The position numbers and the translations under genes were made by a program. From positions 49,074 to 113,073 of the forward strand of contig JBAYKL010000003.1 of assembly GCA_041664585.1 (NCBI GenBank): a DNA stretch of 64,000 nucleotides, given 5' to 3'. This stretch comes from Minisyncoccota bacterium (GTDB taxonomy: Bacteria > Patescibacteriota > Minisyncoccia > Phycocordibacterales > GWA1-40-21). Each line of letters starts with the position of its first letter. The first letter of the stretch is position 1. The notes under the pieces were generated by a model. That model was not told the origin of the DNA, made no database searches, and worked only from the letters and a program-made list of their open reading frames with translations. Shown in pieces: positions 38,687-57,109 of the stretch.

Positions 38687-39220
38687 ATGGGTTTAATAGA
38701 AACAAAAGAAAAAGGTTTTACTCTGATAGAGCTTTTGGTAGTAATAGCTATAATTGCAATGCTGAGCTCTGTTGTTATGGCCGGTTTTAGTGATACTAAA
38801 CAGAAGGGTAGAGATGCTGCTAGAGTAAGGGCCTTACAGGAGGTGAGAAGCGCTTTGCAACTTTATGCTACTGATAAGGGAGGGTTTCCTCCGGGTACCA
38901 ATATATTAGGATCTTCTAATTTATTAACTGAACTTGCGGTAAACAATAAATACATAGCGTCTGTTGATTCTAGTCTAAGATATAGCGGAGTAAATTCCGA
39001 TGGAACTTATTGTAATCCGTCAGTATATACAGTGTGCTCTGGGTACCATATTGGAATAGCCCTAGAAAGAAGAGACAGTGGTGTTTTAGTGAATGACAGT
39101 AACTCAATTCTGCCAACTGGTAGTGGTCCAGGCACAGCGGTGATAGGAACAAATGATACTTGTGGGCCTGCTGGTGTAGTCGGAGGCACCCCAGTATTGT
39201 GCTATGATATTTTACAGTAA
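38687..39220 (+). CDS. type IV pilin-like protein (class III signal KG|FTLIELLVVIAII)
   Basis: Prepilin cleavage motif G|FTLIEL with Glu at +5; hydrophobic N-terminal helix; C-terminal Cys pair. Confidence 0.8.
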   Translation: MGLIETKEKGFTLIELLVVIAIIAMLSSVVMAGFSDTKQKGRDAARVRALQEVRSALQLYATDKGGFPPGTNILGSSNLLTELAVNNKYIASVDSSLRYSGVNSDGTYCNPSVYTVCSGYHIGIALERRDSGVLVNDSNSILPTGSGPGTAVIGTNDTCGPAGVVGGTPVLCYDILQ

Positions 39221-39224
39221 TTTC

Positions 39225-39782
39225 ATGTTTTATAATAAAAGAAAGAATGGTTTTACTCTAATAGAGCTTTTAGTTGTTATATCTATAATCGGCCTACTCT
39301 CCACAGTCATCTTGGCTAGTCTAACGAGCGCAAGGAAAAAGGCTCAAGCTACAAAATTTGTTGCTGATATGAATCAACTCAAAACAGCTTTTGAATTGTA
39401 TAGGAATGACAATGGTCAGTATCCTTTTGAAGATAGACAAATAGGTACTGAAGCCGACGAGATATCACATCTCTCTTTGACAACCAATTTACCGGGCGCT
39501 AGTGGGAAGGGTCTTAATGATGAATTAGTCACGAATAAATACATAAGTTCTATTCCTAATATTTCTCAGTGTCCAACTGTATGTGATTTGAGAGTCACAG
39601 TAACTCCAGAGGATTATGGTTATATTACAAAAAAAGAATTACTCGGTGGTACCGATACCTCTTATCATTGTGGTGGTGTTATTTTTAAAAATTATTTATT
39701 TTATGTCGGTAATAATCAGATAAGTCCGAATTATCCGCACCTTGGTGGGGGCTACGACAATTATTATTGTTTTGGTCAGTAA
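39225..39782 (+). CDS. type IV pilin-like protein (paralog of 40826 and 41378)
   Basis: MFYNKRKNG|FTLIELLVVISIIGLL; start at 39225 chosen over 39204 because it lies after the upstream stop; ends ...YYCFGQ. Confidence 0.8.
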   Translation: MFYNKRKNGFTLIELLVVISIIGLLSTVILASLTSARKKAQATKFVADMNQLKTAFELYRNDNGQYPFEDRQIGTEADEISHLSLTTNLPGASGKGLNDELVTNKYISSIPNISQCPTVCDLRVTVTPEDYGYITKKELLGGTDTSYHCGGVIFKNYLFYVGNNQISPNYPHLGGGYDNYYCFGQ

Positions 39783-39821
39783 TATGTTTAGTTTTCCAAA
39801 AATTAGTTTATAATACATTGT

Positions 39822-40475
39822 ATGTCCGTAGAGTTCGACCAGAAAAATATGTTTTTGAAAAAAAGTAAAGGTTTCACCCTCATAGAACTTCTAGTGGTTA
39901 TTTCAATAATTGGTTTGTTATCTACTGTAGTCATGGCTGGTATGCAAACCGCTAGGCAAAGAGCAAAGAATTCTTATGTAACTGCTTCAATAAAATCTTA
40001 CATAACTGCATTAAAGGGTTATTATGCAGATCATGGAGGGTACCCAGCTAATTATGGAGACGGTTGTGAGTGGGCGGCATATTATTATATTGGATTAGGA
40101 AAAACAGACTATCAAGCATTAGGGGGACATTTTTGCTCGTATATTGATTCGAATTACTTTTTAGACCAACTTTCGCCGTACCTTTCTTCTCTGGATGATC
40201 CTAGTCCGTATGAGAATCCAAAGCCTTATAATGATATCCATAACGTTATCTATTGGAACAGGAAGGGCGCAGGATTTGTTTGCGAAGATAAACAAACAAA
40301 CCTTTACTGTTCTAAGGGTAAAATTGTTTGGGTTATTGATACAACTATAGATAAAAATGTTAATTGTGGGGATGTGGGTGGTGGAAGTAATTCTATGCCG
40401 GCTGAAGATTTACAAAATATTTTTGGTATGGATTTGAAAAATTACGTTTATCACTACTGTTATTTAAATATTTAG
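39822..40475 (+). CDS. type IV pilin-like protein with a long leader (MSVEFDQKNMFLKKSKG|FTLIEL)
   Basis: Prepilin motif. The N-terminal MSVEFDQKN is conserved at protein level with gene 40491, so the 39822 start is probably used; the alternative start is 39849. Confidence 0.7.
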   Translation: MSVEFDQKNMFLKKSKGFTLIELLVVISIIGLLSTVVMAGMQTARQRAKNSYVTASIKSYITALKGYYADHGGYPANYGDGCEWAAYYYIGLGKTDYQALGGHFCSYIDSNYFLDQLSPYLSSLDDPSPYENPKPYNDIHNVIYWNRKGAGFVCEDKQTNLYCSKGKIVWVIDTTIDKNVNCGDVGGGSNSMPAEDLQNIFGMDLKNYVYHYCYLNI

Positions 40476-40490
40476 TGATATAATAATTTT

Positions 40491-54610: not shown

Positions 54611-55279
54611 ATGATAAAAAAGAACCTTAAAAAAATAAATTCGGCCGGGTTTACTCTTGTAGAGCTTTTGGTCACTCTTTCTATTTTTGCTGTTACTACT
54701 GGTATCGTTATGACAAGTCAGGGTAAGTTTGATAATAGTATTTTACTTACAAATACAGCATATGATATAGCTCTTACTTTGCGTCAGGCGCAGACTTTTG
54801 GAGTTAACGTAAAAGAGGGTTCTGGTAATGCTTCCAGTAAATTTAATCCATATGGGGTTGTTTTTAATAATTCAGTAAAAACAAGATTTGATCTTTTCGA
54901 AGACCTTCCGGGCGGTAGCGGGGGTAGTAATTATAGATATAAATATGATGGTAATTTTATATGTGTGACTAATGTAGACTTAGAATGTGTTAGCGGCTTT
55001 AAGATTAAAAGAGGACATTATGTAAAATCAATTTCTATTTATGATAATGCTGGAGCATCTTCATCTGTTGACGTTTTGAATATAAGTTTTATTAGACCTA
55101 ATCCTGAGGCAATAATAGTGGCAGATGTTGGAGCCAATATTGGAAGTTATAATCCAGCTCTTCCATCGGCTTTCTTTAATTTACCAAAATCTGCAGAGAT
55201 TGTTATCTCTTCTGCTGATAATTCAGCAACAAGAACTATAATAGTAACCAAAGTAGGACAAATTTATGTTAAAAGATAA
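54611..55279 (+). CDS. minor pilin (GspH/FimT-like)
   Basis: AG|FTLVELLVTLSIFAV prepilin motif. Confidence 0.7.
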   Translation: MIKKNLKKINSAGFTLVELLVTLSIFAVTTGIVMTSQGKFDNSILLTNTAYDIALTLRQAQTFGVNVKEGSGNASSKFNPYGVVFNNSVKTRFDLFEDLPGGSGGSNYRYKYDGNFICVTNVDLECVSGFKIKRGHYVKSISIYDNAGASSSVDVLNISFIRPNPEAIIVADVGANIGSYNPALPSAFFNLPKSAEIVISSADNSATRTIIVTKVGQIYVKR

Positions 55280-55943
55280 TTCAAAATTTAATAAGGGTTT
55301 TACTTTAGTCGAAATGCTCGTTGCCATTGCTGTTTTTATGATTGTTATGACAGTAGCTGTCGGTTCTCTGGTTTCAATAATAGATGCTAATAGAAAAGCT
55401 CAGGCAATAAAAAATGTTGTTAATAATATAAATTTTGCTTTGGAAAGTATTTCAAAGGATATGAGAGTTGGAACAAATTTCTTCTGTTTGACTAACGCGT
55501 TATATAATAATGGAACTTATACAAGTGGAGAGTATGTTAATGATGAAGATGCTTGTAAGATTGGTTCTGTTGGGGTTGGATATAAGAAGGAGAAAAACAA
55601 GTACGTTTATTATAGATTTTTTCCTGGAGACAGTAGTGTTTTAGGAGAGAAGGGTAATATTAGAAAATGTGTCAGCTCCAGTTTTCCAGATTGTAATGAT
55701 TGGGAAAGTATTACTGCACCAGCTTACAATGTTCAAATTACAAGTATGAAGTTCTATGTCTTAGGTGCCGATACTCTTTTTGATGCTGCTGGTGTCTATA
55801 CCAATAAGTCAAAGACTCAAGATTCATGGAGACAACCAAGGGTTATAATTGCCTTGGAAGGGACAGCTGGTATTAAGGATAATGTGAAAACAACTTTCAA
55901 TATTCAAACAACTGTTTCTCAGAGAATAAGAGAAATACATTAA
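55266..55943 (+). CDS. minor pilin (PilW-like)
   Basis: KG|FTLVEMLVAIAVFMIV prepilin motif. Confidence 0.7.
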   Translation: MLKDNSKFNKGFTLVEMLVAIAVFMIVMTVAVGSLVSIIDANRKAQAIKNVVNNINFALESISKDMRVGTNFFCLTNALYNNGTYTSGEYVNDEDACKIGSVGVGYKKEKNKYVYYRFFPGDSSVLGEKGNIRKCVSSSFPDCNDWESITAPAYNVQITSMKFYVLGADTLFDAAGVYTNKSKTQDSWRQPRVIIALEGTAGIKDNVKTTFNIQTTVSQRIREIH

Positions 55944-55946
55944 TAT

Positions 55947-56537
55947 ATGTTATATGTAAAAAATAAAAAAAGAATAGAAGGGTTTACGTTAGTGGAGTCA
56001 CTTGTTGCTATTTCTATTTTGATGGTTGCTATCGTTGCCCCTATGACAATCGCTCAGAAAGGTCTAGGCTCTGCTTCATATTCTAAAGATCAGATGACCG
56101 CATCTTTTTTGGCTCAAGATGCGATTGAGTTTATAAAAAACAAGAGAGATGAGATTGGTTTGAGGAAGGTTGCTGTTAAAGCAGATCCGATTGACGCTGA
56201 ATGGCTTGGGAGTAACTCGGCTTTGATTTTGTTGGACATTTATAATAAGTGTCTAAATCAAACATGTTATGTTGATACTGTGATTGAGAATATAAGTAAT
56301 ACTCCTAGTAACGTCTATTTAATCAGAAATTCTTCAGATCATAGTTTTATCTATTACGGTAATCAAAATTCAAATTCTGGTTACGAATCAGAACTATCTA
56401 AATTCAAAAGAGAGGTAACCGTGAAATATCCTGCATCTAGTAGTTTGGACGAAGCCCTTATCACAGTCAAAGTATCTTGGCCAGGTGAAACGATCACTGT
56501 TCAAAGCTTTATTTATAATTACTGGGAAAACCTATAG
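55947..56537 (+). CDS. minor pilin (PilV/GspI-like)
   Basis: EG|FTLVESLVAISILMVA prepilin motif. Confidence 0.7.
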   Translation: MLYVKNKKRIEGFTLVESLVAISILMVAIVAPMTIAQKGLGSASYSKDQMTASFLAQDAIEFIKNKRDEIGLRKVAVKADPIDAEWLGSNSALILLDIYNKCLNQTCYVDTVIENISNTPSNVYLIRNSSDHSFIYYGNQNSNSGYESELSKFKREVTVKYPASSSLDEALITVKVSWPGETITVQSFIYNYWENL

Positions 56538-56539
56538 AT

Positions 56540-57109
56540 ATGAATATTAAGAAGTATAGAAAAATTAATATGGTTTTAAGATCTACTAAAGGGTTTGCTA
56601 TGCTTTTTGCTGTGCTTACAGCCAGCTTACTTCTTACGATTGGTATTTCTATTTTTAATATTTCCTTTAAAGAACTATCTATTTCTACAAATGCCAGAGA
56701 GTCACAGATAGCGTTTTTTGCTGCTGATAGTGCTAGAGAATGTGCTTTGTATTGGGATGCAAAGAAAGGTTATTTCCCATCTTGTATAGATGACAAGGCA
56801 ACTTGTACAGAATCTGAGCCGAATGACAAATATGGCAATTCAATTATTTGTAATGGTAGTGTTGTAACGATAGTTAAAAGTCCGGTCAATACCGTTGCTA
56901 CAACAACGTATAAAAATGATTATGGAACTTTGAAGCCTTTTATCAAATATAGTGATAGTAGCTTAGACCCAGAAGCTGATGTAGATATTACCAAATATTT
57001 TAACAGCGCAGATAATAGTATCACTACAACAATTAGTGCGAGAGGTCATAATGTTGGGGTTTTAGGTAGAAGACTTGAAAGAGCTATTGAACAGACAAGC
57101 GTAAGATAA
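56540..57109 (+). CDS. minor pilin-like protein (PilX-like, non-canonical G|FAML signal)
   Basis: KG|[14 protein letters not shown] hydrophobic N-terminal helix; last gene of the minor-pilin block. Confidence 0.55.

Follow-up and report, generated by a model that had tools for sequence, protein, structure and literature searches.

Which surface machine is encoded by the 25 consecutive open reading frames (ORFs) between positions 38687 and 57109 of the 64-kb stretch of DNA analyzed here (hereafter the window), and which of these genes truly belong to it? An initial annotation had read this interval as a competence locus with a complete type IV pilus (T4P) machinery and about 12 pilin-like genes. 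Our comparisons of sequences and gene order support, with a probability of roughly 90%, that it is the main type IVa pilus (T4aP)-like gene cluster of a Candidatus Paceibacterota (Parcubacteria) bacterium of the Candidate Phyla Radiation (CPR/Patescibacteria). The locus is real, was correctly delimited and interpreted, and is ordinary for Paceibacteria and the CPR, adding no new principle; its sole fresh detail, a modest one, is a small unnamed membrane protein family encoded directly 5' of one pilin subfamily.

The interval opens with the ATG of the first prepilin gene and closes with the stop codon of the last minor-pilin-like gene, so that its bounds, taken from ORF coordinates, are exact at both ends. 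Its genes lie on the plus strand in 24 cases and on the minus strand in one, and the GC content stays at about 33-35% with no compositional break. The encoded proteins are carried in NCBI in a metagenome-assembled genome of a Candidatus Paceibacterota bacterium under locus tags WC229_014xx-015xx.

Machinery genes and their conservation in relatives

Hidden Markov models (HMMs), motif checks and synteny with relatives agree on a complete T4P machinery. Assignment with Pfam and NCBIfam recovered PilM, PilO, PilB, a receiver, PilT, PilC, PilD and N_methyl prepilins (Table 1), and extension and retraction ATPases are both present, PilB being identified by its T2SSE and MshEN domains and PilT by a TIGR01420 score over the cutoff. 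The Walker A, Walker B and His boxes are intact in PilB (GPTGSGKT, DPDVIMVGE and TGHLVLSTIH; likely true start at 45459) and in PilT (Walker A GPVGHGKS), the latter also bearing AISNLIRE at residue 293 in the place of the AIRNLIRE signature. PilD retains both Asp motifs (D117 and GFGD183) as well as CxxC...CxxC (CFSC...CFGC). A profile of PilO and its relatives matches the PilO proteins of M. xanthus (3jc8_Oa, E 8.5e-12) and P. aeruginosa (2rjz, E 0.0074). The single-domain receiver encoded between pilB and pilT has its acidic pocket (D12/D13), phospho-acceptor D57, T87 and K109 all present. Four consecutive genes after pilD probably form the minor-pilin block, with sub-threshold matches to GspH, GspJ/HpsC and PilV/GspI; its fourth protein lacks Glu5 (E5), like PilX/GspK-type proteins, bears the JGI name 'Tfp pilus assembly protein PilX' and has orthologs in four related contigs (L001, L004, L009 and L081).

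For the comparison with relatives, 80 loci surrounding PilB homologs were searched by tblastn with every protein of the window. A recurring order was found in Paceibacteria/Parcubacteria contigs (L001, L004, L009 and L016), in which comF on the minus strand is followed by pilM, pilN, pilO, a gene for a small protein, pilB, cheY, pilT and pilC, and then by pilA (1-4 copies), pilD, the minor pilins, ligA and gatC/A; the sister genome (contigs L081 and L089) is almost gene-for-gene identical. A cheY-like match occurs in 18 of the related loci, the closest of which have it between the two motor genes pilB and pilT. A comF match is present in 22 of the 80; among the 32 loci that were detailed, about 19 have it beside pilM in divergent orientation. 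The initial annotation had pointed to Saccharibacteria for comparison, but the closest relatives, with a PilB identity of 64%, belong to the Parcubacteria/Paceibacteria. Compared with the sister genome, PilM, PilB, PilT, PilC and the receiver are 82-88% identical, PilN, PilO, PilD and ComF reach about 66%, the minor pilins 51-55% and PilA 47%, and a 353-aa Cys-rich protein encoded within the cluster (see below) has 28%; such a gradient would fit the expected diversification of exposed parts.

Pilin genes

A motif scan of every ORF of the window recovered ten ORFs with G/F[TS][LI][IVA]E and a hydrophobic helix, all of them within the interval. Their leaders span 4-16 residues, and nine pass the PF07963 cutoff, the tenth passing that of TIGR02532. 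Five lie 5' of comF (pil1-pil5), followed by pilA, one gene just before pilD (59% identical to its ortholog in L081) and three after it; the E5-less fourth minor pilin is an eleventh, atypical member. The initial count was therefore close, with ten canonical prepilins and one lacking E5. Of the six further prepilins in tandem that had been proposed, five are prepilins, whereas the ORF at 40491-40826 has neither an N_methyl domain nor the G/F/E motif. The number of Cys residues is even in all pilins.

PilA is the probable major pilin, since it is short and rich in Gly, Ala, Ser and Thr (GAST) and its gene has its own promoter and terminator. It is the shortest of the pilins, and its GAST content of 47.8% compares with 24-36% in the others (24-28% in the array pilins, 36% in pil1). 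Such properties served to nominate the major pilins of the saccharibacterium TM7x (PMC11623550). Positional orthologs of pilA follow pilC in relatives, with four tandem copies in L001.

The pilins of the five-gene array resemble PilA over the N-terminal 60-70 residues only and form a separate family. Within it, pil2 is 42-45% identical to pil4 and pil5 over its full length, has a sub-threshold GspG match (58.8 bits) and is 63% identical to a pilin of the sister genome (L089, 7001-7561). The AlphaFold model of pil5 (predicted local distance difference test score, pLDDT, 87.7) shows a long alpha1 helix and a beta-sheet, and its top structural matches belong without exception to the type IV pilins and pseudopilins (PAK pilin, C. 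difficile PilA1, TcpA, CofA, Thermus PilA4, EpsG and PulG); S. sanguinis PilE1 is a structural neighbor as well. The ten prepilins of the window exceed the numbers in related loci (maximum 8, median 1 per about 20 kb) because of the array, which has five pilins here and two in the sister genome. Neither the gene content nor the pilin number, which the initial annotation had considered notable for a small genome, is out of the ordinary in the CPR (PMC6744442, PMC9763046, PMC11623550). The array evolves via duplication, loss and fusion.

Two special origins of this diversity were considered and rejected. The repeats between pilin genes are just 60-81% identical over 107-189 nt, unlike Neisseria-type pilE/pilS gene-conversion cassettes, and therefore represent ordinary paralogy; and as to a diversity-generating retroelement or another mobile element in the locus, the ORFs scanned included no reverse transcriptase or transposase, and no repeat resembling a template/variable pair is present. 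The segment from mgtC to comF (window 36218-42584) is a plasticity zone relative to the sister genome (L089, 4540-9139), holding here two minus-strand genes without assigned function, a tRNA-Ser, a histidine phosphatase, the five pilins and one gene for a 111-aa protein, and there two different genes, likewise without assigned function, and two modules of a 111-aa protein and a pilin.

Alternative readings of the cluster

Three other readings were weighed. A type II secretion system (T2SS), in which a pseudopilus piston would export folded proteins, had been named by the initial annotation as the competing assignment. PilC scores best as GspF (345.9 bits, against 292.6 for the PilC model), PilB reaches 484.7 bits as GspE, the array pilins match best as GspG (58 bits), and pilA and pil3 carry the NCBI name 'type II secretion system protein'. 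All these scores, however, fall under the curated equivalog cutoffs, the shared parts scoring alike for T2SS and T4P, whereas PilT and PilM are T4aP-specific and pass their cutoffs. Besides, none of the ORFs scanned matches a secretin (GspD or PilQ), PilP, GspC, GspL, GspM or GspK, in agreement with the absence of a secretin noted before, and CPR bacteria have neither an outer membrane nor PilQ, the lack of PilP/PilQ being the norm for CPR and monoderm T4P (PMC6744442). We regard a secretion system as barely conceivable. A Com-type pseudopilus serving chiefly DNA uptake rather than adhesion or motility is improbable too, though less so: comF is a divergent neighbor of pilM in this and many related loci, ComEC occurs widely in the CPR, whose members rely on nucleotide import (PMC6744442), and the essential T4P-1 of TM7x is suspected of DNA uptake (PMC11623550). 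On the other hand, Com systems lack PilT and PilMNO, of which PilT, PilM and PilO are present here, the ComGA and ComGB models (263.7 bits against a cutoff of 300, and 120.9 against 240) score far under the PilB- and PilC-type ones, and eleven pilins with a four-gene tip set exceed the needs of DNA capture. The adjoining comF, on the minus strand, is the only basis for calling this a competence locus: its phosphoribosyltransferase domain and phosphoribosyl pyrophosphate loop (IILIDDVITTG) are present, and JGI names the protein ComFC (NCBI, 'phosphoribosyltransferase family protein'), but TIGR00201 gives 87 bits under a cutoff of 233, and there is no N-terminal Cys. ComFC proteins have an N-terminal Cys4 zinc finger.

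A third reading leaves the machine as it is and concerns the five-gene array, which would encode the major subunit(s) of a second filament, as in T4P-2 of TM7x, assembled by this machine or by another encoded elsewhere. TM7x makes two filaments and has five pilins in a locus of their own (PMC11623550), the family of the array pilins is distinct from PilA, some relatives bear a second T2SSE/T2SSF pair (L084), and a module of a 111-aa protein and a pilin lies far from any pilus machinery in L090. We consider it unlikely, if the least so of the three, given that the 64-kb window holds only one machinery and that the low GAST content of the array pilins is unlike that of typical major pilins. Our guess is that the five are alternative or accessory pilins.

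The preferred reading, a secretin-less T4a-like retractile pilus, follows from PilT and PilM passing T4aP cutoffs, from the absence of a secretin and of GspC/L/M, and from the lower scores of the Com models. Several observations weigh against it. PilB, PilC, ComF and the minor pilins score under their NCBIfam equivalog cutoffs (for PilB, 497.8 bits with TIGR02538 against 675.7). The PilN-position protein (43831-44442), kept between pilM and pilO in seven close loci, has no match in NCBIfam, among PDB sequence profiles or, with the limit relaxed to E ≤ 10, in Pfam, and hhalign gave only 8% probability against the PilO profile; its place and topology fit, but the name pilN given to it before is positional. 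The same searches (Pfam at E ≤ 10, NCBIfam and PDB profiles) detected no PilP and no other match for the next small protein (likely start 45022, alternatively 45004), which has no lipobox and is conserved at this position, with an invariant GRxNPF motif, in seven relatives and L081. PilP proteins have an R-x-PF motif, which is a lead only, and we replace the earlier label 'PilP-like' by that of a lineage-specific bitopic protein. PilB and GspE proteins usually bear a tetra-Cys zinc site, which is absent from this PilB with its two Cys (C468 and C515); together with a ComF devoid of the N-terminal Cys cluster, this may reflect CPR streamlining. ComEC, ComEA and DprA are all missing from the 64-kb window, leaving a DNA-uptake role unsupported here, and in TM7x, mutants of T4P-2 remained normally competent (PMC11623550). 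The functions that we infer for this pilus (attachment, twitching and possibly DNA uptake) derive from homology and from Saccharibacteria, and we can only guess at what the array pilins and the receiver do.

In the mechanism that we propose, PilD would cleave and N-methylate the prepilins on the membrane's inner face, the four minor pilins encoded 3' of pilD would prime a tip complex, and PilB would drive polymerization of PilA on the PilC/PilMNO platform, the filament leaving through a secretin-less envelope. PilT would then depolymerize the filament, producing the retraction force for host-cell attachment, twitching and probably DNA capture. The receiver would probably switch or bias PilB versus PilT once phosphorylated by a kinase encoded elsewhere.

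Comparison with known systems

Co-localized genes for PilB/T/C/M/N/O/D and multiple pilins, with no PilQ, have been described across the CPR, where the authors tied the cluster to competence genes and host interaction (Meheust 2019, PMC6744442). The present cluster has the same composition, counting its PilN by position; that paper does not deal with a receiver encoded between the two motor genes, nor with the GRxNPF and 111-aa proteins or an inserted cassette (see below). Members of the Paceibacterales UBA5633 have multi-pilin pilBCDMT clusters with pilins that are highly expressed while attached to methanogens (Kuroda 2022, PMC9763046; 2024, PMC10936435); the present organism belongs to the same class, and its locus likewise has many pilin-signal-peptide genes with pilBCDMT, a likeness by description.

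The saccharibacterium Nanosynbacter lyticus TM7x has 12 pilins, with one locus encoding PilC, PilB, PilT, PilMNO, PilD and five pilins (Grossman 2024, PMC11623550), and a further five-pilin array (locus three), a large PilX-type minor pilin lacking E5 and a signal, and GAST-rich major pilins; host binding and twitching by its T4P are experimentally supported (PMC11623550). The window shares with it a machinery locus, a five-pilin array, an E5-less PilX-type minor pilin and a GAST-rich candidate major pilin. It differs in belonging to Paceibacteria rather than Saccharimonadia, in the array being contiguous with the machinery, in the lack of a second machinery in the window and in the minor pilins, for which no accessory domain of the lectin type was detected.

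The T4aP of monoderms (Clostridia, Streptococcus sanguinis) are likewise secretin-less, with PilB/T/C/M/N/O/D and several pilins, but sequence identity is low, and only the CPR arrangement has the CheY receiver, the GRxNPF protein and the link to comF. The receiver resembles PilG/PilH and the cyanobacterial PixG/PatA-type CheY-like regulators of T4P motors in having all phospho-acceptor residues and in being genetically tied to pilB/pilT, but no Chp/Pix-type kinase or methyl-accepting chemotaxis protein is encoded in the window, and its regulatory role is putative.

A small membrane protein family coupled to one pilin subfamily

The ORF at 40491-40826, annotated in NCBI as hypothetical protein WC229_01460, encodes a single-pass membrane protein of 111 aa that matches no Pfam family. 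Homologs of exactly 111 aa and 39-44% identity lie 1-2 nt 5' of pilins of the pil2/4/5 type, twice in the sister genome (L089) and once in L090, where the module adjoins rpoB. A scan of metagenome contigs with the pattern of the family alignment found 15 further loci, and an HMM built from 13 members matched 22 ORFs in the DNA scanned. A GFTLIE prepilin motif starts 12-62 nt past the stop codon in 19 of 20 evaluable cases; in the exception, a second member of the family comes next and then the pilin. About 15 of these modules are non-redundant. With phmmer, 67 clusters of 60-113 aa were found among 1.84 billion representatives (E ≤ 1e-3). The family is characterized by an N-terminal M-x-V-[EQ]-F-[DE]-x-[EN]-x-x-F, a juxtamembrane [FI]AK[ND]EKQA and a variable tail. 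As a conserved family, it is neither a decayed pilin nor a spurious ORF. Mimicry of the PilN N-terminus by its N-terminal peptide found no support, hhalign having aligned the transmembrane helix only, with a probability of 2.8%.

The fused leader of pil3 corresponds to the N-terminal peptide of this family joined in frame, as judged from its resemblance, in DNA and in protein, to the beginning of the gene at 40491. A close relative (P0253) retains a longer fused remnant, MSVEFGQENCFTKIFNR, and in L092 an intact, unfused partner of 109 aa precedes a pil3-like pilin. Because it is fused to a cytoplasmic prepilin leader, the N-terminus of the 111-aa protein is probably cytoplasmic and functionally tied to the pilin. 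The fusions in pil3 and P0253 are Rosetta-stone-type evidence, suggesting that the peptide acts with the prepilin on the cytoplasmic side, its docking to PilM, PilC, PilB or PilD being one conceivable example. We tentatively propose, at somewhat less than even odds, an undescribed N-in family translationally coupled to one CPR pilin subfamily and acting as a pilin-specific assembly, targeting or regulatory factor; for the present protein, a role in targeting or assembly is our best guess.

The pilA leader and its promoter box

The pilA gene sits between two strong hairpins and has its own extended -10 promoter. Between promoter and start codon, the hairpin GAGCTTCGCGCGAAGCT is kept in the sister contig L081 with one compensatory change in the stem (T/A to C/G in the alignment), and it stands beside a conserved ACCTTGAGCAAGT block (50060-50075). 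It has no match in Rfam, with which a scan of the 64-kb window found only tmRNA and tRNAs, and it could be an attenuator or leader element.

The box 5' of this promoter is a perfect DnaA-box-like 9-mer, TTATCCACA, which occurs three times in the window (49956-49964, 16953-16961 and 21960-21968) and in relatives at L081 7084-7092 and, 5' of pilM, at L011 7472-7480. It lies 42-44 nt 5' of TATAAT before pilA, before two duplicated genes for Lcl_C-domain membrane proteins and before pilM of L011, and the copy at pilA is kept in the sister genome though the rest of the spacer has diverged. The 9-mer is also found 5' of a pilin (L079), of a module of a 111-aa protein and a pilin (L103) and of a homolog of the 494-aa cassette protein (L084), and just past pilC in L002. 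Three copies compare with 0.66 expected; 6 of 100 shuffles had at least as many, and two of the copies belong to a duplication. It may be a common activator site for surface-structure genes, and TTATCCACA-N35-TATAAT before pilA, pilM and other surface genes could define a simple surface-structure regulon.

A two-gene cassette within the cluster and neighboring loci

Two genes between pilA and the pilin gene that follows it, encoding a 494-aa and a 353-aa protein, had been left out of the initial list. The 494-aa protein has 53 homologs, and every one examined is followed by a Cys-rich, membrane-anchored partner of 288-350 aa with the ADYICT[RK]V motif common to the 353-aa protein, for which just five homologs were found, its 28% identity to the sister standing against the 82-88% of the motor proteins. 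The model of the 494-aa protein (pLDDT 88) matches known structures only via a transthyretin/CnaB-type sandwich. The cassette is bracketed here by terminator-like hairpins and lies inside the pilus cluster in this lineage only; other genomes have it after fusA, dnaE or recJ or in the vicinity of nusA. We treat 50648-53234 as an unrelated, independently transcribed surface-protein operon inserted into the cluster, with no intrinsic pilus gene. The pair was observed as a conserved Paceibacteria two-gene operon moving between genomic contexts (L083-L088). Between fusA and tuf, the window itself (3775-6756) encodes a secreted protein of 993 aa that is rich in Ser, Thr and Gly and devoid of Pfam domains. 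In L083 and L088 the cassette takes its place after fusA, so that this slot, with its different inserts, looks like a surface-protein hotspot.

Outside the cluster, the duplicated genes for membrane-anchored Lcl_C-domain proteins (17009-18513 and 22016-23499) flank cysD-like (PAPS_reduct), cysN-like GTPase and adenosine 5'-phosphosulfate (APS) kinase genes (18925-21648), and a sulfotransferase gene adjoins them on the minus strand (23580-24428). This group looks like a module for synthesis of 3'-phosphoadenosine 5'-phosphosulfate (PAPS) and sulfation of a surface molecule, an unusual cargo for a reduced CPR genome. A free-standing ORF resembling LAGLIDADG_3 homing endonucleases (61941-62618) lies just past two tRNA-Met genes (61624-61855), and Rfam at the gathering threshold found no rRNA or group I intron.

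Table 1. Genes and regulatory features of the pilus cluster, in window coordinates (GAST, summed content of Gly, Ala, Ser and Thr; a point marks features given without strand).
Feature	Position	Strand	Characteristics
pil1, prepilin, 177 aa	38687-39220	+	KG/FTLIE; PF07963 34.8 bits; 4 Cys; GAST 36%
pil2, prepilin, pil2/4/5 subfamily	39204-39782	+	PF07963 35 bits; likely start 39225
pil3, prepilin with fused leader MSVEFDQKNMF...	39822-40475	+	PF07963 34.3 bits
111-aa single-pass membrane protein, non-pilin	40491-40826	+	no Pfam; stop overlaps pil4 start
pil4, prepilin, 181 aa	40826-41371	+	PF07963 36.1 bits; 50% identical to pil5
pil5, prepilin, 180 aa	41378-41920	+	alpha1-helix and beta-sheet pilin fold
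comF-like phosphoribosyltransferase	41922-42584	-	PF00156 35.9 bits; divergent from pilM
pilM, actin-like ATPase fold	42656-43774	+	TIGR01175 169.5 bits (cutoff 133); PF11104 125 bits
PilN-position bitopic protein	43831-44442	+	position only; invariant N-terminal SFIP
pilO	44444-45016	+	PF04350 30.6 bits (cutoff 22)
128-aa bitopic protein at 'PilP' position	45022-45408	+	invariant GRxNPF motif
pilB, extension ATPase	45444-47189	+	T2SSE PF00437 394 bits; MshEN PF05157 55 bits
Single-domain CheY-like receiver	47220-47612	+	PF00072 66.8 bits; between pilB and pilT
pilT, retraction ATPase	47614-48675	+	TIGR01420 428.8 bits (cutoff 319.1)
pilC, platform protein	48691-49896	+	two T2SSF (PF00482) domains, 197.9 bits
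Terminator-like hairpin after pilC	49907-49946	.	perfect 40-nt palindrome
pilA promoter and leader	49956-50150	+	TTATCCACA box 44 nt 5' of TGTATAAT; hairpin; ACCTTGAGCAAGT block
pilA leader hairpin	50019-50036	.	GAGCTTCGCGCGAAGCT, then T-run; between promoter and start codon
pilA, probable major pilin, 136 aa	50151-50561	+	PF07963 37.6 bits; 4-residue leader; GAST 47.8%
Terminator-like hairpin after pilA	50584-50627	.	inverted repeat I10, 95% complementary, then T run
494-aa membrane-anchored protein	50648-52132	+	transthyretin/CnaB-like beta-sandwich; first cassette gene
353-aa Cys-rich membrane-anchored partner	52173-53234	+	14 Cys; ADYICT[RK]V motif; fast evolving
Terminator-like hairpin closing cassette	53255-53288	.	
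Prepilin preceding pilD, 164 aa	53309-53803	+	KG/FSIAE; TIGR02532 16.8 bits (cutoff 16.3); PF07963 17.4, below cutoff
pilD, prepilin peptidase/N-methyltransferase	53813-54610	+	A24_N_bact PF06750 106 bits; Peptidase_A24 PF01478 37 bits
Minor pilin 1, GspH/FimU-like	54611-55279	+	PF07963 28.4 bits; sub-threshold GspH 29.6
Minor pilin 2, GspJ/HpsC/PilW-like	55266-55943	+	PF07963 35.4 bits; sub-threshold HpsC 38.3, GspJ 23.9
Minor pilin 3, PilV/GspI-like	55947-56537	+	PF07963 23.9 bits; sub-threshold PilV 26.8, GspI 25.2
Minor pilin 4, PilX/GspK position	56540-57109	+	KG/FAMLF, no Glu5; no Pfam match

Implications

T4P are thought to be the main means by which the ultra-small bacteria of the CPR locate their hosts, hold on to them and feed on them, and every well-resolved locus assists the choice of targets for the time when Paceibacteria become tractable. 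The practical value of the present analysis is a clean list of parts (the probable major pilin, the tip set of four genes, the plastic array of five pilins and the embedded receiver), in which the true genes of the machine are set apart from a merely embedded two-gene surface cassette. Should the 111-aa protein prove to be a dedicated partner of its pilin, it would add a new accessory part to type IV filament systems, and it may help to show how one machine picks among many pilins.

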